DNA from: Protoeuglena noctilucae
Lineage: Eukaryota
NCBI GenBank assembly: GCA_958009085.1
Contig: OY253672.1
Location: 930,001-994,000, forward strand
Direction: 5' to 3'
DNA length: 64,000 nucleotides
Made by a program: the position numbers and the translations under genes. Position 1 is the stretch's first letter. Each line of letters starts with the position of its first letter. The notes under the pieces were generated by a model. That model did no database searches. It saw only the letters and a list, made by a program, of their open reading frames with translations, and was not told where the DNA came from. This document shows positions 15,678 through 33,969 of the stretch, piece after piece.

Positions 15678-16334
15678 CGCGGGGGCGGCCCGCGCCTGGA
15701 CCGGTGGATCTGACAAGCGACGTCTCTGACATGTTGCCGCCCCCCCGCGTCTGCTGGACCGCAGGCTCGACCTTGCACACTATATCTCTCTCCTAGCCAC
15801 GTGGGACACCGGCCCTCCTCGGGCGGATTCCCCATCTCGCGCGTCCGACGGCAAAGTCCCCCTGCTCAGAGCAGGTGAGGTACCGGCCCACTCCGCTCAC
15901 CCAACTTGACACATGACTATCGCTCGGGCTCCAGCCGGGCGCTCGCGCCCACCGAGGGGCCCGTGTTTTCGAATTGCCCGCTGGTGCTGCCCCCGCGACC
16001 CTGCGACAATCCCGCCCGTTCCATCCATCGACCCTAGCCGCTGTGGACAAAATCACGACTCTTGTGCCTCTGCGGCCAGCCCGCCATTGCCGCGGGGACC
16101 CACGCGACGCACGACGCGGTCTGCACGCCATGCTCGCCGTCCTCGCCGAGCCGGGTGCACGACGCGGCCCCGCACCCCACCCTCGCGTTGCGTTTGTTCA
16201 CCTTAACCTGTCGGGCTAGAGAAGGGAGGCGTTTCCGGCGTGTGGGCGGCACTCGCGGCCCCGTCGCCATGTGCGCAGCGTTCCCGGCCCCACACGAGCC
16301 GCCCCTCGCCGCAGGAGATGGCTCTCTGAGGAAG

Positions 16335-16962
16335 ATGATTAGGTATCTCCTACTCCAGAACAGGCAGGGAAAGACGCGGCTCAGCAAGTGGTACGTCCCC
16401 GTGACCGACTCGGAGAAGCGCGAGATAGAATACGACGTGCACCGCCTCGTGACCAAGGCGAGGGGCGGTGCGCTGGCATCGCTGACACAGGTAGACGCCG
16501 CTCGCGCGCCGGGCCGACCGGCCGACCCCGCGCGGCCCCCGCAGCGGAGCAAGTCCGCGAGCAACGTGCTCGAGTTTGGCAAGCACAAGGTGGTCTACAA
16601 GCAGTACGCGGGGCTCTTCTTCTCGTGCTGCATCGACCTGGCCGACAACGAGCTTGTCGTCCTCGAGGCGATGCACCTGTTCGTCGAGCTGCTGGACCAC
16701 TACTTTGAGCAAGTGTGCGAGCTCGACCTCGTCTTCAACTTCCACAAGGTTTACCTCATCATCGACGAGTTCATCCTCGGCGGGGAGGTGCAGGAGACGT
16801 CCAAGGTTAGCAGGGCGGGGCGGGGTGCAGGCTTGCTTCCCGCGGGCGGGGGACGCGGGGCCCATGCGAGCGGCCACCCATCCACGTGACCGATGTCCGT
16901 TGTGCGAGCAGAAGACCATCCTGGAGCGGCTGGTGGAGATTGATCGGACGGAGAAGAACTAG
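16335..16962 (+). CDS. AP2S1: AP-2 adaptor complex sigma subunit
   Basis: [59 protein letters not shown]. Introns 16458-16544 (GC-AG) and about 16807-16910. Confidence 0.95.
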
Positions 16963-16980
16963 ACGCGGGCGTGAGGTGCC

Positions 16981-18168
16981 ATGACGGGCCCCAACGTGGC
17001 GCCGACGGCGCCGATGGTGGCGGGGAAGCTCCGCTTCGGGGTGCACGCGTGCTCCGGGGAGGACCCCGACTACCCCGCGCGGGAGCTGCTGTACCACTCG
17101 GCGCACACGCGGGGCTGGCAGACCCCGCGTTTCTGCCGGTACCCCCAGGAGGTCGTGCTCAGGCTCGACCGCCCGGCGCGCGTGCAGCAGATCCAGATCC
17201 TGTCCCACGAGTACAAGATCACGCAGCGCCTCGAGATATTCGTCGGCGTGCCCCCGCCCGGCGAGACGGACCCCGAGCGGTGCTCCTTCCGCCGGCTGGG
17301 CCACCTCAGCTTCCACACCAATGAGAGGACCAACTACCAGGCCCGGGAGCTCAAGACCGTGCACATCAACGACCCCGCGGTGCTCATCAAGTTCGTCGTC
17401 AACGGGCCCCACGTCAACCAGCACAACGTGTACAACCAGGCACGCTGGCTGTGCCTGCTTGCTGCTGCAGCCCTGCCACCCCTCCGCGTGGGCGTTGAGT
17501 GCTCGCCCCTTCCGCACGCCCGCAGGTCTGCATCATCGCCATCAACCTCCTCGGCGAGCCCCTGCCCGCGCCTGCCCCCGGGGCGGCGCCGGGGGTGCCG
17601 GGTGTCGGGGCCATCGACGCGGCGGCGCGCGACTTTGCGCTGGAGATGAACGTCGACTCGGTGACGGCGGCGCAGATCCGGGAGCTGGCGGCGGAGAAGG
17701 CCCGGGCGATCGCGGAGGAGGACTACGACAGGGCCAAGGAGCTGAAGGGCGCGATGGACCGATTGCGGGAGGTGGGGCGCAAGGTGGCGCAGCTGGAGGC
17801 CAAGAAGCGCGCCGCGGTGGAGCGGGAGGACTACGACGAGGCCAAGGCGCTCAAGGAGGACATCGACAAGCTGCGGGCGGGCGGAGTCGTGGCGTCCGTG
17901 CCCAGGCATGCGCGGGAGGCGGGAGGGGACGTGCTGACGCGGCTGGCGGGGGCCCCGCCGCCGGCGCCGGGCGGGGCGCCGCCGGCGGACTTCGACGAGA
18001 CGCCCGTGGGCGCGGGGGCTGGCGGCGCGGCGCAGGGGTACGGCTTGCCGGAGGAGGGAGGATACCCGGCGGAGGAGGACGAAGACGGGCGGCAGATGCG
18101 GCGCGCGCTCAGCAGCAACGGCAACGGGGATGCGGCGGGCCGGGGCAAGGGGCCACTGTCGGCCAAGG
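16981..18168 (+). CDS. CEP104: Centrosomal/flagellar-tip protein CEP104 (FAP256-like), 5' part, cut by the assembly gap
   Basis: GWQTPRFCRYPQE, IQILSHEYKI, RRLGHLSFHTNERTNYQARELKTVHI, NVYNQ|VCIIAINLLG, then UVR-like coiled coil AIAEEDYDRAKELK...AVEREDYDEAK. Confidence 0.9.
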
Positions 18169-18368
18169 NNNNNNNNNNNNNNNNNNNNNNNNNNNNNNNN
18201 NNNNNNNNNNNNNNNNNNNNNNNNNNNNNNNNNNNNNNNNNNNNNNNNNNNNNNNNNNNNNNNNNNNNNNNNNNNNNNNNNNNNNNNNNNNNNNNNNNNN
18301 NNNNNNNNNNNNNNNNNNNNNNNNNNNNNNNNNNNNNNNNNNNNNNNNNNNNNNNNNNNNNNNNNNNN
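18169..18368. other. Assembly gap (200 N)
   Basis: Run of N characters. Confidence 1.
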
Positions 18369-19000
18369 GACGACCCCGCCGTGTACGAGCGGGAGCTGCA
18401 GGTGGGGTGGCAGGGGTGGCATGGACACGTGCGTATGCCGGTGGCTGCTCCGGGTGCATGACATGCCCTCGAGCCAGCTGCTCCGCGATTCCTTGCATGC
18501 TTCTGCTGTTCCCGCGACCGCCGTGTCATGTCAGCGGCTCTCCGTCATCGCAGGCGAAGGAGCGGAAGTTCGGTCCGAACCACGAGGAGGTTGCGGAGGC
18601 GTGCAGCAACCTGGCCATCCTGTACAACCAGAACGGCGACTACAAGCGGGCTCTGCCGCTGTACGAGCGCGCCCTGCGCATCTGGGAGAAGACCAAGGGG
18701 CCGGAGTGCGCAGACGTGGCCCACACGCTCACGGGTGCGTGGACGCCTGCGCACCACGCGCCAGAGCGTGCGTGGAGAAGAGCGCGCGTAGACTGGATCT
18801 CGTGTCAACTATATGTATGATTGATCACAAACGTGCTTTTCCCGCCGCCCGCAGACCTGGCGGTGCTGTACTTGGAGCAGGGTGACGACGACCGCGGCCG
18901 GCCGCTCCTCGAGCGTGCCCTGCGCATCCAGGAGCGGGAGCTGGGGCCGGACCATCCGGACGTCAAGGCCATCCGCGACGTGCTGCAGTCAGAGGACTGA
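18369..19000 (+). CDS. Kinesin-light-chain-type TPR repeats (3' end of a gene, possibly the CEP104 gene)
   Basis: GPNHEEVAEACSNLAILY...ALPLYERALRIWEKTKGPECADVAHTLT|DLAVLY...ERALRIQERELGPDHPDV. Stop TGA at 18998-19000. Confidence 0.8.
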
Positions 19001-27455: not shown

Positions 27456-27858
27456 GGCGATGCGCTGTTCTTCAGCAAGAGGCGTCCCCTGCTGCTCTGG
27501 GCCCGCGGCCTGCTTTGGCGCGCAGCTGGCTCGAGTACGCAAGGCGCGCGAGGCCTAGCGAGGCCCAACCAAGACGTCACCACACGAGTTCGATCTCAGC
27601 GAAACTGCACTTAGGGCGGATAGGTCGAAAGCGCGGCCATGTTTTCGCCGCGACCCGCGCGAGTGCGCGCCAGACCTGACAGCAGGCCGCGGCTCGATCG
27701 ACGGAGTGGCTGGTGGAGTGGGCCACGATATGCCGTCGAAACGTGATCGGGGAGGGGTTGGGGCTCTGCGGCTCTAAATGCCAGCATGACCTCATGGGCT
27801 GGCCAGGGAGGCTACGGGTGACAATGCCGAGAGGGCGAGCGCGTCAACGGCATCGGAG

Positions 27859-29231
27859 ATGACCGCCCTGCCGAGCATTACGAGTTACGATTGCCTCCAT
27901 TTCCGCAGTGGAGAGGCTGGCTTTTATGCCGGCTTTGACAGCGGCGCGGGAGGAGGCGAAAGGCGCCGCCGGAGTGAGGGACTGAGTCCGGATGCCGTGC
28001 TGAGCGGGGCCCTGGGACTCGGGTTCGTGCTGCTTTTCGTCGGGCGCTACTTTCAGGGCAATTCGGGAGCGCTCCAGCGCGTCCACCACGTCCGTGAAAC
28101 GTACGAGAGCGCCGTGGACCGTTGGGAGGCCATCCTGACGCGTAAGGGGGGCCTGGCCGAGGCCATGCTGAATCCTGCGGACACATACACCTTTCACGTG
28201 ATCACGAGCCTCGTCCCGGGACAAACGTCGACCCAATATACTACCCACCTGCCTTTGGAGGTGAGCGCATGCTGCATTCATTTGCAGAAACCGATGAGCG
28301 CGATTCGCAGCCGCACCATGGCGGCGCACGCGCCCGTGGCATGTGCGAATGTGTGGCCCCAGCTGTCCTCGCATCGCAGGTCGTGCGCCGGCGGGTCAAC
28401 CTGCTCCCGCGCCACGTCTCGACCCGGTCGTATGAAGAGATAGTTCTGAAGAACACCGATCCGGGATTTTTCGACCGGGTCGACCAGGAGCGTATCCGAA
28501 GGGTGAGCGCCGAGCACAGGGGTCGCTGTGGCGAGCTCGTTGCGGCCTCTGGATCGTGCCGCCTCCTCCCGTCACAGGGCAAGCACCGGACGGGGCGGGT
28601 GGAGGACTGGATGTTCGAACCGATGCGCTTCTTGATGGTACTCCACCTGCCAGGGCGGGGAGTGTCCCACCAGGAGGCCATACAGCTGCCGTTCGCGAGG
28701 CGCGTCGCGCTCCCAGGTGTGACGGGCCGGTCCTGCACGCGCCAGGGTGGGACGCTCGAGCCTGATGGCACGTGCGCCAGGCACGAGGTGGTGCGGAGCG
28801 TCTGCATGGTCTTCGAGTACCTGGGCGGGGAGTTCCGCAACGCCTTCTCGGGGTCGTCGGTCAAACTCTACGAGACCGTCTCCTGGGACAGCCCCAAGGC
28901 CCGCGTCGGGTGCAGCCCTGCGGACGGGTGGACGGCCGTGCAGTGGGCGCCCGTCCCCGCGGGCAGCCACCTGGGGGCCTTCAACCCCACCATCACGGTG
29001 TGCTTCACGGGCGACCCCGTCCTGGACGCCCAGGCCGTCACCTCCGGCCGCCTCGACGTCCCCTACGTCTTCCCCTACTCTGGCGCGCTGTCCTCCGCCC
29101 TCTACGCCATCTCGCTGCTTCTGATTGTCCCTGCCGGCATCCTCCTCGGTGTGCGGTACTGGGGCCGCGTCGCCCGGCAGCAGCGTAGCCGGGAAGAGCT
29201 CCCGTCCGGGGGGTTCAACCCTGGTTTCTAA
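27859..29231 (+). CDS. Hypothetical protein with N- and C-terminal transmembrane helices
   Basis: Spliced ORFs with GC3 bias. Hydrophobic segments AVLSGALGLGFVLLFVG and ALYAISLLLIVPAGILLGV. Confidence 0.6.
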
Positions 29232-29263
29232 CGAGCAGCGCAGCTCGCAGCTCATCTCTTGAA

Positions 29264-31079
29264 CTAGAGCATGCCTTCTCCGGGCAGCCTGGCCCTGCCG
29301 CCACTGTTGGGCTCATACAGGCGCCCCGTGCGGCCGTCCATAGCGTGCTTGTCCGCACCCGGCACGAGCGGCCGGTCCTCCTTAGAGAACGTCCGCATGC
29401 CACCCGCGTACGTCTGCTCCTCCTCCGTCGCCGCCTGCCTCTGCGCGCCGGACAAGGTGCGGTGTTGGGTGGCACTCGAGCACGCGGCGTACCACCATGT
29501 CCCTGTCAGCTTCAGGTGGACAGCTCACCAGGGTGGGGACGCCCGTGAGGCGGTCGCGTGGGCCGCGCTCGTAGAGCACGTCTCCCTCGTTCTCCAGCGT
29601 TACTGAGAGGCCCAGGTCGGCGCGGGCGCCGCGCGAGTGGGCGACGCGCGCCGTCAGGGCGGCCGTGGCGTTCAGCAGCGCGTGCCACGACTTGAACGCG
29701 AGCGTGGCCGTGGTGGCCTCGGGGCCGGTCGCCGCCTTCAGGAGCCAGCAGCGGTTGAGCTGCCAGGCCGCCCCGCCACGCAACGCCAGCCCCTCGCCCC
29801 TGCGGTACGCCATCTGCAAAGCCAGGTCCACGTAGTTGGTGATGCCCACCACCGCGTTGGGGTCCTCCAGGACGTTATACACCGACCGCCGCGTGGCCTG
29901 GCGCTGCACGAGCGTCAGAAGCGGCTCCTCCCCCTTAAGCGGCACCTCGATCGCGGCCGTGAAGCCGCTGCCCGGGAAGCGCCCCGTCGCGACCGCTGCC
30001 GCCACCCGCAGCTCCCCCGCGGGTGTCTGGGGCTGGCCGCCGAGGTGGCTCGCCAGGATGCCTTGGGCGGGGAGCAGCCCGGCCACGACGGCACCGACGC
30101 CGCGGTCGGCCCGGTCCAGCAGCGGGGCCCCCGGCTGCGTGGCCCCGGCCCCGGCGTACGTCAGCGCCAGCGCCAGGGTGCGGGGGCGATTGGCGCCATG
30201 GCTTGCAGGGACAGAAGCATCGCCCGTGCCATTCGCGGTCGCTCTCAGGTCGATGTTGACGGCGGCCCAGGCGTGCGAGACGCGCGCACTGCCCCCTGCC
30301 CACGCGCCGTGGGCGCCGACCGACGCCGCCGCGCTCGTGAGCTTGGCACCCCAGACGAGGGGCAGGTGCGTGGATTCGTGGGGCTTGCTGAGCGGTAACC
30401 CGACGAAGGCGCCGAGGCCGACGGGCATCTTCCTGCGGGCAGCAAGAGCGGGATGAGGGTGTGTGGGTGGGATGATGGCGCGTGCCTGGTAACTCCGCAC
30501 CCCTGCCTGTGGAGGCGAGGAAAGGCCCTCCCACCGCTCACTTCGGTGCGACAAAGGCCGCCAGGGTGGCGACCGGCGGCGTGTCGGGAGCGCCCCACCC
30601 CTGTGACGCCGAGAAGTCCGCCAGGAGCAGCGCGTTGGGCGTCACCAAGGGACGGACGCGAAAGGCGAAGTCCATGAAGAAGGGCGGGCTCCCAGTGGGC
30701 CCAGCCTCTGCTGCGGGCACTGAAGCGCGCGAAGTTGGGGAAGTTCGCTGCCGGCGAGAGCGAGGGACGTCCAAGTGGAGCGTGCGCCCCTGCGGCACGA
30801 CGCACCGTTGTCGCGCCTCGCATCGCCACGGCCCTGGGGCACCTGCTCCGCGGCCAACGTGAGGCTCACGAAGTCGTCGTCCAGGGGTGCGATGTGCGCG
30901 GTGATCCCTCTCTGCGTGGCCACGTGCGTATGCAAAAGGCGGTGCAGCTCGGCCCTCGCAAAGGAGCTCGAGAGCGGCGATGCGAACAGACGGGCCTCCC
31001 TGCTGTGGTCTCGGTCGAAGAAGGGCGGAACGAGCACTACGCTCGGGGGCTTCTCTGCCGTGGAAAGCTTCAGGCCCAT
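29264..31079 (-). CDS. OM47: Mitochondrial outer-membrane beta-barrel OM47-like protein
   Basis: MGLKLSTAEKPPSVVLVPPFFD, VVGITNYVDLA, AAWQLNRCWLLKA, LAFKSW resemble the plant OM47 family. Confidence 0.75.
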
Positions 31080-31112
31080 GGCGCCACGAGCCCCGTCACC
31101 CCACAAGCGGTC

Positions 31113-31807
31113 TCAAGGGTCCGAGGGGCCACCCTGAGGCTCCTCGGCGACCCCCGCGGGCGAGGGTGCGTAGACGCTGCTGGTGCGTGCGCCTGTCGAC
31201 GGACCCGGGGTCCCGACGCCTGCCTGCGCCAGGGCGTGGCGGACGGTGCCGGCAGGGTAGCGGCGGGGCACGATCCCTTGCAGAACGGCGGCCCCTCTGA
31301 TGTTGCCGACGGCCTGCGCCACGTCGTCGTAAGAGATCTCCTCGCGTCCGGCTGAGGAGGCCGCGTCGGCTGCGGAAGCAGCGACGTTGCGAAGGAACAG
31401 CTCCGAAGCTTTGGCTGTGACGTAGGCCGCCTTGTCGCTGCACGCCTCCAATCGCAGTTGCTCCTGAACGAGCGCTTTCACGTGAGCAAGCGATATGGCC
31501 GACTCGGGGAGCTCTACAATCGCCTGCGTGCAAAGCAGGCATCAGTGCCTCTGCACGTCGCAGGGGGGCGGCCCCAGCCGGCATAGAACATCCATGCCGG
31601 CAGTATAACACACAAAAAGGGCGTCGTTGGCAGCACGTCGCGGATCGCGGCAGGGATCGACAACCGCGGGCAGCAAAGCGAAGCACAGCGCAAGGGCGGA
31701 TGCCGAAGCCATCGTCCCACCGAATGAGCTGCGCCGTTCTCGCCGGCGCGGAGAAGATGATCGTATGCTGCCTGCGTCGACTCCTGCAAAGGGCCGGGCG
31801 GAGTCAT
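31113..31807 (-). CDS. Histone-fold protein (NF-YC/DPB3/CHRAC15-like)
   Basis: ISLAHVKALV...SDKAAYVTAKASELFL...ISYDDVAQAV...LQGIVP. First exon inferred (MTPPGPLQ...). Confidence 0.8.
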
Positions 31808-31992
31808 CGCGAGGGGAGTGGGGGCCGCGATGCTCGCAACACGGCCGTGCCCAGTTGCGGCGCAAAGGGGCTGTGGCCGTTTGCAGGTATCAAAGTACAA
31901 AGCACTAGTCCAGTCTTCAAGACTTGAAAGCGCAACTGAGTTGCCTACAGCACACACTGGCACGTTCAGCACACTCGCAGGCACACAGCCGC

Positions 31993-33969
31993 CTACAGCT
32001 GCACGCGGTAGCCCATTTGCCGATTGAGGTACTGGGTGTCGACGCCCGAGTCGCGCTTGAGCGCCACGCGCCCCGTGCGGGCCACCTCGAGGATGCCGTA
32101 AGGCGCAAGCAGGTCCTGGATGGCGCGCATCTGCGGCAAAGTCGACGGCAGCAGTGGCGTAGATGTCACGGGGGTAGGCCAAGCAATATTGAATGCAACT
32201 ACGACCATGCACCAGGCAGAGGCCAGGCCGACAGCACGATGCCCATGTCACGTCATGCGCACCTTGCTCTCGCGCCCCGTGAGCTCGATGGTGACCGTCG
32301 AGAGGGTGAGGTCCACGATGTGCCCGCGGAAGATGTCGGCGATGTCCTTCACCTCCCTCCGCTGCGCCGCGTTGCACCGCACCTTGACCAGCATGAGCTC
32401 CCGGTACGCAAAGGGCGCTTCAGTCAAGTCCTCGACCCTCTCCACGCCGACGATCTGCGAGCGCAGCACCCGACCCACCTCACGACGCGCTCACACCCAC
32501 CGCCCACGGCATCTGTAACGCTGCACCGGCCGTGGCCCCGCGCCCGCACCTTCTCAATCTGCTTAATGAGCTTGTCGATGGCGCCCGCAGAGGCCGGCAC
32601 GACCACCGTGATGCGCGACATGCCGGGCGTCTCCGCGTGCCCGACCGCCAGGCTCTGCACGTTGTAGCCGCGGCGCGACATGACGGAGGTGACGCGGTTG
32701 AGGATGCCGGGCTCGTCGGCCAGGAGGATGGACAGCGTGTGCGCGCTGTAGGCGGACTCCATCTCGGCCGGCATGTTGTACGCCGCGTCGAGGATGTTCT
32801 CCACCTCCCACACGCCCTCGGCGTCCCCGCTCCCGTTGCCAAACACGTCGATGTGCTCCTCCGAGGGGATGTCCGGCCTCCGCGCCCCCGTCCGCGACGG
32901 CGTGCGCTCCGTGCCGTCGCCCCAGCCACCCATCTGCAGCAGGTCCGCCCCGCGCTTGAGTGCGATCTTGCCCGTCCGCGCCAGCTCCACCACCCCGAAC
33001 TTGGCCAGCGCCCGCTGGAACGCGGCGATCTTCCCGGAGTCCCCCGTGCACGCGAGCGTCAGGCACCGGTCCGAAGCGTCCACCACAGACGACCGGAAGA
33101 TGTCCGTGAGCTGCAGCACCTCGGTGCGTGCCGGCCCCGGGGGCGCCCGCAGCTTGATCAGCACGAGCTCCCTCTCCACGCGCGAGGCCCCCGTGATGTC
33201 CTCCACGTACCGCACCTTGACCAGCTTGCCCAGCTGCTGCACCAGGTTGTCCACCGTCGACTGCAGGGGCCAGCGAGAGCAGTCAGCGCGCTGCGCACAG
33301 CGCGTCCTGCACCATCCAGCTACCCAGGCGACCCTCCACGCTGTGCGCCGCGCACCTCGCTGCCGGTGACGGTGATGGTGAAGAGGGCCTTGTCCAGGTT
33401 CAGGCCGACCGCCAGAGACTCGATGTTGGCGCCGCGCCGGGCGAACACGCCGGCGACGCGGTTGATGAGGCCAGCCTCGTCGGCCACGAACACGGATATC
33501 GTGTGCTTGCGCATGCCCTCCTCGAGCGGCTGCAGATCCTGGATGTACACGTCGCCCCCGGTCCGCGGCTCGGCCCCAGCCACCGCGTCCTCCACCTGCA
33601 GGGCCCGCGCCTCGGGATACGTGGGCTATCACCCACGCTGCCGCAGCCAGCAACCACATGAGGTGTGAAGAAACGCTTCGCGACTCTTGCCGTCACCTTG
33701 CCGGGCACAGCCATGCTGTACGGGCTGCTCTCATCCTGGGCTGCCTTACGCAGCACGCCGCGGCGCCGCAGGGGCTGCGCAGCGACCCGGACGGCCTTCA
33801 GAGGACATGACGAAACAACATGGCTGACCTGGGAGGCTGCGGCCACGAGCAGATGAGGGCCGGCGTCTCGCGGGCCAGCAACTCGCCGCGACTCGCACCG
33901 ATGCCCATCCGTCATCTCCAGCGCCGGTCGATGGCGACTGGCGGGTACAGCAGACGCTCGAGGTAACAT
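31993..33969 (-). CDS. AHASS: Acetolactate synthase small (regulatory) subunit, duplicated ACT type, plastid
   Basis: [34 protein letters not shown], second repeat [46 protein letters not shown]. Confidence 0.96.

Follow-up and report, generated by a model that had tools for sequence, protein, structure and literature searches.

The locus lies on the minus strand of a 64,000-nt stretch of Protoeuglena noctilucae DNA (GenBank assembly GCA_958009085.1, contig OY253672.1, positions 930,001 to 994,000), hereafter the window, in whose coordinates all positions are given. Two open reading frames follow each other closely: ORF1, encoding 165 aa, and ORF2, encoding a 507-aa OM47-type beta-barrel in four exons. 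In the direction of transcription, the features are:

31916..31920, minus strand: TTGAA between the upstream gene, whose stop is at 31993, and ORF1, marking a boundary; in all four RNA runs that gene forms its own contig
31808..31906, minus strand: 5' leader without ATG; RNA contigs start at about 31867-31906, giving a leader of at least 60-99 nt
31721..31807, minus strand: ORF1 exon 1, 29 codons from the ATG at 31807 (sequence, RNA contigs, gene finder)
31524..31720, minus strand: ORF1 intron, 197 nt, GT..AG, containing five ATGs; skipped in all four RNA runs
31113..31523, minus strand: ORF1 exon 2, with an H2A-type histone fold (Dpb3/CHRAC-like, PF00808), a low-complexity tail and a TGA stop at 31115-31113
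31080..31112, minus strand: inter-ORF spacer, 33 nt, in frame, without ATG, TTGAA or TGGGA; crossed by contigs of RNA runs X1, X2 and X3
30806..31079, minus strand: ORF2 exon 1, ATG at 31079, with the Met-Gly...VLVPP N-terminus typical of its family
30542..30710, minus strand: ORF2 exon 2 (RNA contigs)
29529..30432, minus strand: ORF2 exon 3, most of the beta-barrel (RNA contigs, homologues, Porin_3, structure model)
29264..29440, minus strand: ORF2 exon 4, TAG stop at 29266-29264 (RNA contigs)
29230, minus strand: TAGAA variant, upstream of the TTGAA at 29218
29214..29218, minus strand: TTGAA, the first after the ORF1 stop and a candidate signal for the 3' end of the unit as a whole; an X3 contig ends at about 29207

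Re-reading of the sequence bore out the initial annotation, which had placed the ORF1 stop 33 nt before the ORF2 ATG at 31079. The median distance in 69 same-strand neighbour pairs was 344 nt. The ORF1 stop and the ORF2 start share one frame, with a single TGA between the two ORFs, and annotation pipelines could easily overlook ORF1. The gene upstream of ORF1 (stop at 31993) presumably encodes the small subunit of acetolactate synthase. On the opposite side, a convergent plus-strand gene of four exons (27786-29231), with no Pfam match in the frame scanned, stops 32 nt from the ORF2 stop. The TTGAA of each strand (29214-29218, minus; 29259-29263, plus) lies at or inside the end of the opposite gene, so that the 3' ends overlap.

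The Pfam domain PF00808 was detected in ORF1 above the cut-off (E 2.4e-5). With weak E-values, its best solved relatives were 5y26_B (E 0.002), which is S. pombe C16C4.22 and which we take to be Dpb3, and CHRAC-16 (E 0.01), followed by NF-YC (E 0.23), while Atlas matches under 0.9 included CENP-S. A word-seeded protein search with ORF1 returned only ORF1 itself and no relative, indicating a very divergent protein. Judged from its sequence, ORF1 is predicted to be an H2A-type histone fold, and the ranking favours Dpb3/CHRAC-16 over NF-YC. The genome also carries separate NF-YC-, NF-YB-, NC2- and Dpb4-like genes (labels read from their translations), as well as a second Dpb3-like histone-fold paralogue (L033, G000:C1:476361-479468), in which the fold is apparently preceded by a stretch that we take to be HMG-box-like. 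Because of this paralogue, ORF1 is not assignable to Pol epsilon as opposed to CHRAC. Compared with Dpb3/POLE4 and CHRAC1/CHRAC-16, ORF1 is alike in PF00808 and in its best solved relatives, and differs by its strong divergence.

For ORF2, an unseeded search identified 96 relatives at E ≤ 0.001; word-seeded searches returned only ORF2 itself, or two matches when the family alignment was used. Named members of the family come from chlorophytes, streptophyte algae (425-432 aa in the streptophyte members), land plants, Cafeteria and Perkinsus. Porin_3 was matched by 14 of the 58 aligned members, ORF2 itself not being among them. The structure model of a 372-aa part of ORF2 was almost entirely beta strand (mean pLDDT 70.6), and a fold search with this model returned bacterial porins alone, with low TM-scores, which supports a predicted barrel and nothing finer. 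ORF2 is distinct from the two other Porin_3 loci of the genome, and its matches to TOM40 were weak (E 0.03-0.14). The family is a Porin3-type all-beta barrel, separate from VDAC and TOM40. Land-plant members, none of them named OM47, matched in a small set with E-values between 4e-17 and 4e-12, and in a quick tree ORF2 formed a long branch among the chlorophyte rows. ORF2 fits the OM47 lineage, a putative name that draws on these family features. The labels of the initial annotation, a chromatin or Pol-epsilon-type subunit and OM47, are broadly right, OM47 being a putative assignment and the subunit either Pol-epsilon- or CHRAC-like. Arabidopsis OM47 (At3g27930) is a Porin3-type beta-barrel of the mitochondrial outer membrane, described as plant-specific in the accessible text of PMC5100019. 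ORF2 resembles it in its all-beta barrel model and in belonging to a family with Porin_3 matches, and differs in its length of 507 aa and its long branch, whereas the family as a whole reaches Cafeteria and Perkinsus (P0054, P0072), beyond the plant-specific range given in that text. Homologues begin with Met-Gly at the position matching 31079, which supports initiation of ORF2 there. Both ORFs are intact and belong to conserved families, and nothing was found that links the histone-fold protein to the barrel in function.

Eight public sequencing runs covered at least half of the window. The four recorded as RNA (X1 to X4) were examined as assembled contigs; they come from one study and at most three samples, X2 and X3 sharing the same sample. 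All four introns, one in ORF1 and three in ORF2, were spliced out in each of these runs, and since 13 joints in total sit at splice sites, the signal is RNA. The intron that the initial annotation had inferred in ORF1 proved exact, contigs of all four runs skipping 31720-31524 and reaching 148-187 letters past this joint on the 5' side. A single contig with the ORF1 joint and all ORF2 joints was present in X1 (3349 letters) and in X2 (3354 letters). A contig of X3 spans the spacer (30806-31173) and the contigs of X4 do not, so that the junction was crossed in three of the four runs. The upstream gene, 185 nt away, was assembled as its own contig in every run. The convergent plus-strand gene at 27.8-29.2 kb is likewise part of the junction contigs of X1 and X2; contigs can therefore merge separate overlapping RNAs, and they fall short of proving a single molecule. 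Loose ends were also observed in two runs, at 30402 and 30817 in a second, less similar contig of X1 and, 19 letters long, at 31906 in X3. Sequencing error at the ORF1 TGA was considered and rejected, as the RNA contigs covering that stop agree with the genome and carry no deviating letters.

Near the ORF1/ORF2 junction, cover holes were present in X3 (31174-31250) and X4 (about 30895-31294), and the ORF1 contigs were shallower than the ORF2 contigs (6.1 versus 9.2 in X3, 4.9 versus 8.0 in X4). The GC content of the hole region (0.73-0.76) does not exceed that of well-covered parts of ORF2, so GC bias is no explanation. The holes and the depth difference lean towards two units. They were given no weight, because contig holes and depths prove nothing, the X4 hole lies deep in both coding sequences, and X1 and X2 cross the region.

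A re-scan of the sequence upheld the claim that the spliced RNA has no ATG between the two starts, all ATGs being confined to the intron. After the ORF1 start, no ATG occurs in any frame across the 528 nt of spliced ORF1 and spacer; the first two ATGs of the spliced model are those at 31807 and 31079, and the five between them (31712, 31595, 31591, 31584 and 31542) are all intronic. A comparison with the count expected from composition, also proposed in the initial annotation, gave 0 ATGs against 4.2 by base composition (P0 0.015) and 2.7 by a dinucleotide model. As a genome-specific null, gene models were predicted on 994 kb, approximately 4% of the 26.3-Mb genome, with a small gene finder trained on 664 kb. 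Of the 13 introns seen in RNA it found 12, and it predicted ORF1 exactly; this check is not fully independent, as the finder had been seeded with, among others, those 13 introns and the coding sequence of ORF2. Of the 839 528-nt coding windows in these gene models, 14 were without ATG (3 of 322 when matched for AT content), and of the 81 genes with 120-220 codons, ORF1 alone had no internal ATG. The probability of no Met in 164 codons was 0.037 and that of no out-of-frame ATG, given genome codon usage, was 0.19 (jointly about 0.007). The ATG gap exceeds chance, although none of the P values is blind, the locus having been chosen for its missing ATGs.

ATG loss was also analyzed in relation to gene spacing. 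Internal ATGs were absent from three of the 11 genes lying at most 60 nt from the next same-strand ORF (0.19 expected), compared with one of the remaining 379 genes (2.6 expected). Besides ORF1, the three comprise two small ORFs from a single locus on contig C6; the other eight close-spaced genes showed no ATG depletion, and some of them resemble split models. As for the start codons, the contexts of ORF1 and ORF2 ranked at percentiles 71/90, 65/96 and 39/49 in three windows, relative to 134 filtered and unmapped predicted starts, and a cruder start matrix reversed the order (46th for ORF1, 29th for ORF2). The ORF1 start is probably weaker than the ORF2 start, yet not weak in absolute terms. 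The GCCATGG context of ORF2, previously described as strong, is so on positions -6 to +4 (96th percentile) and only middling on the wider window (49th percentile).

We then turn to the 3' end. The usual poly(A) signal of chlorophytes is UGUAA (accessible text of PMC7896298 and PMC1868727), and TGTAA was rejected as a 3'-end signal here, being unenriched after stops (17/341 versus 14.9 expected). The motif TTGAA was enriched at this place (105/341 versus 26.7 expected), and the enrichment was repeated in two contigs fetched after the motif had been discovered (31/111 versus 9.1). In 93 tandem spacers, TTGAA occurred 34 times in sense and 11 times in antisense orientation. It seems to be a candidate non-standard poly(A) signal of P. 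noctilucae; in the literature on poly(A) signals that was searched, with most subscription journals outside its scope, UUGAA/TTGAA was not found in the role of a 3'-end signal. Neither TTGAA nor TAGAA occurs between the ORF1 and ORF2 stops. By comparison, TTGAA is found inside the spacer for 46 of the 79 tandem genes with spacers longer than 100 nt, which speaks for one unit. Since it lies within 300 nt of the stop in just 162 of 372 genes, its absence between the ORFs is weak evidence, roughly doubling the odds and no more.

We also looked for the gene pair in other organisms. A histone fold beside a member of the ORF2 family was absent in 80 metagenome loci, of which 20 had at least 600 nt upstream, 14 of them distinct; the histone-fold profile used detected 5 of 6 left-out controls. 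None of these 14 distinct relative loci has the pair. With no close relative among the metagenome loci, it may be young or lineage-restricted. The idea that OM47 habitually serves as ORF2 with other partners was rejected, as no clear short ATG-free upstream ORF was seen in 23 loci inspected. In two of these 23 (L047 and L063), however, there are ATG-free stretches of 515 and 680 nt.

Nuclear bicistronic loci translated by leaky scanning have been reported in green algae (Gallaher et al., 2021, PMC7896298; Duenas et al., 2025, PMC11892635). In the accessible text of these papers, the loci have a short ORF1, short spacers (median 40 nt in A. protothecoides; PMC11892635), AUG depletion and weaker ORF1 contexts, and leaky scanning was shown by mutation (PMC11892635). 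The present locus shares with them the short ORF1, the long ORF2, a spacer of tens of bases and AUG depletion, the last being, as the initial annotation had stated, a published hallmark of such bicistrons in chlorophytes. Likewise, the ORF1 start probably ranks below that of ORF2, so that of the leaky-scanning features AUG depletion before ORF2 is present as such and a weak ORF1 Kozak context only relative to ORF2, and the 3'-end signal, here a putative motif, is found only after ORF2. The locus differs in that this motif is apparently TTGAA rather than UGUAA, and it is known from sequence and RNA contigs. Conserved colinearity is common, although not required, among the published bicistrons, whereas the pair studied here was not seen in relatives. 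The annotated high-confidence loci in the accessible text of PMC11892635 include no barrel, NF-Y or polymerase epsilon entry, their one histone-fold entry being BLOC-1 subunit 1. The locus list of PMC7896298, in its accessible part, gives gene ids without annotation, so the present pair could be in it. No report of a bicistronic histone-fold/OM47 pair in algae was found in the literature searched.

Taken as a whole, the short spacing, the absence of ATG, the lack of a 3'-end motif between the stops and the junction-crossing contigs support the reading of ORF1-ORF2 as an ordinary green-algal leaky-scanning bicistron on one mRNA, to which we assign a probability of approximately 0.75. One capped mRNA would start at about 31900, lose four introns, carry both ORFs and end past the TTGAA at 29218. 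The majority of scanning ribosomes would initiate at 31807 and produce the histone-fold protein. Some would bypass this start, meet no AUG for 528 nt and initiate at 31079, yielding the barrel with its own Met-Gly N-terminus. The co-expression of both proteins suggested in the initial annotation is supported to the extent of the bicistron itself (spacing, ATG gap, contigs); that the two ORFs share one molecule, that TTGAA acts as its poly(A) signal and that both proteins are made is what we infer from these observations. The preference for scanning over reinitiation is by analogy with the Auxenochlorella experiments (PMC11892635), and probably holds here as well.

Two overlapping transcription units, which we consider unlikely, would place an OM47 start site inside ORF1, with the ORF1 transcript ending within OM47 or reading through it untranslated for ORF2. 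Genes overlap readily here, as illustrated by the convergent stop 32 nt from the ORF2 stop and by the fused contigs, and the ORF1 start is not weak. The OM47 contig of X3 starts at 31173, so that 94 nt precede the ORF2 ATG, which would be plausible for a leader, and an ORF1 exon 2 doubling as the OM47 5' leader would likewise purge ATGs there. However, the ATG-free stretch covers both ORF1 exons and not merely the last 100 nt, no TTGAA or TAGAA is available to ORF1 before 29230, and X1 and X2 each provide one unbroken contig.

Far less probable is a single mRNA on which ribosomes reinitiate at ORF2 after translating ORF1, or on which readthrough of the in-frame TGA gives a histone-fold/barrel fusion. 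The 33-nt spacer is short, the ORFs are in one frame and a single TGA separates them, and some reinitiation is compatible with the accessible text of PMC11892635. But ATG loss 500 nt upstream is unnecessary for reinitiation, and a TURBS-like TGGGA near the ORF1 stop was looked for and none was found. As for readthrough, TGA-G is the commonest stop context here (104/409 models), the RNA contigs that span the TGA show it unaltered, and the homologues have their Met-Gly start at the position of 31079.

The initial annotation had also suggested that splicing of the ORF1 intron could gate ORF2 translation. Retention would bring in five AUGs and end ORF1 after 97 codons at a TAG (31516-31514), 88% of the 2027 predicted introns are shorter than this one, and contigs drop rare variants, so a retained form could escape them. 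With an intron ATG density of 0.015 per base, 3.0 ATGs are expected in 197 nt against the five present, and 97 of the 348 predicted introns of 160-240 nt hold at least five; the ATG content of the ORF1 intron is ordinary. Regulated retention as a switch on ORF2 is hardly credible and is left without support by these 97 similar introns, by the spliced form being alone in all four runs and by the likelihood that retention would also ruin ORF1, giving no selective shift in the ratio of the two proteins.

Two other close-spaced groups were observed. In the window (16130-19000, plus strand), an upstream gene that we take to be adaptor-complex sigma-like has its stop at 16962, 18 nt before a CEP104_N gene and without TTGAA; its ORF retains at least one internal ATG, and the gene model is uncertain. 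On contig C6 (C6:664076-665957; L157:4076-5957, minus strand), a candidate tricistron consists of an 83-aa ORF, an 84-aa Complex1_LYR ORF and a ZIP transporter, with the ORFs 12 and 13 nt apart, both small ORFs lacking an internal ATG and TTGAA present after the last stop only. LYR proteins are found in published bicistrons (accessible text of PMC11892635). The TTGAA motif and the candidate tricistron may be newer than the main finding.

Since other green algae already provide tested examples of the mechanism, one further locus adds little in kind, although the leaky-scanning bicistron proposed here would be a clean example, with an RNA-confirmed AUG-free stretch of 528 nt and a pair not seen in relatives. 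The by-product of the analysis, the TTGAA motif, matters more than the bicistron itself: should it serve as a poly(A) signal, P. noctilucae would be an exception to the UGUAA rule given for most chlorophytes. Tentatively, and at somewhat less than even odds, the lineage may have swapped UGUAA for UUGAA and built its own bi- and tricistrons, unrelated neighbouring genes becoming joined when the upstream signal is lost, after which the first ORF is purged of every AUG, both here and at the C6 locus. If so, the birth of bicistrons would be traceable under different 3'-end rules.
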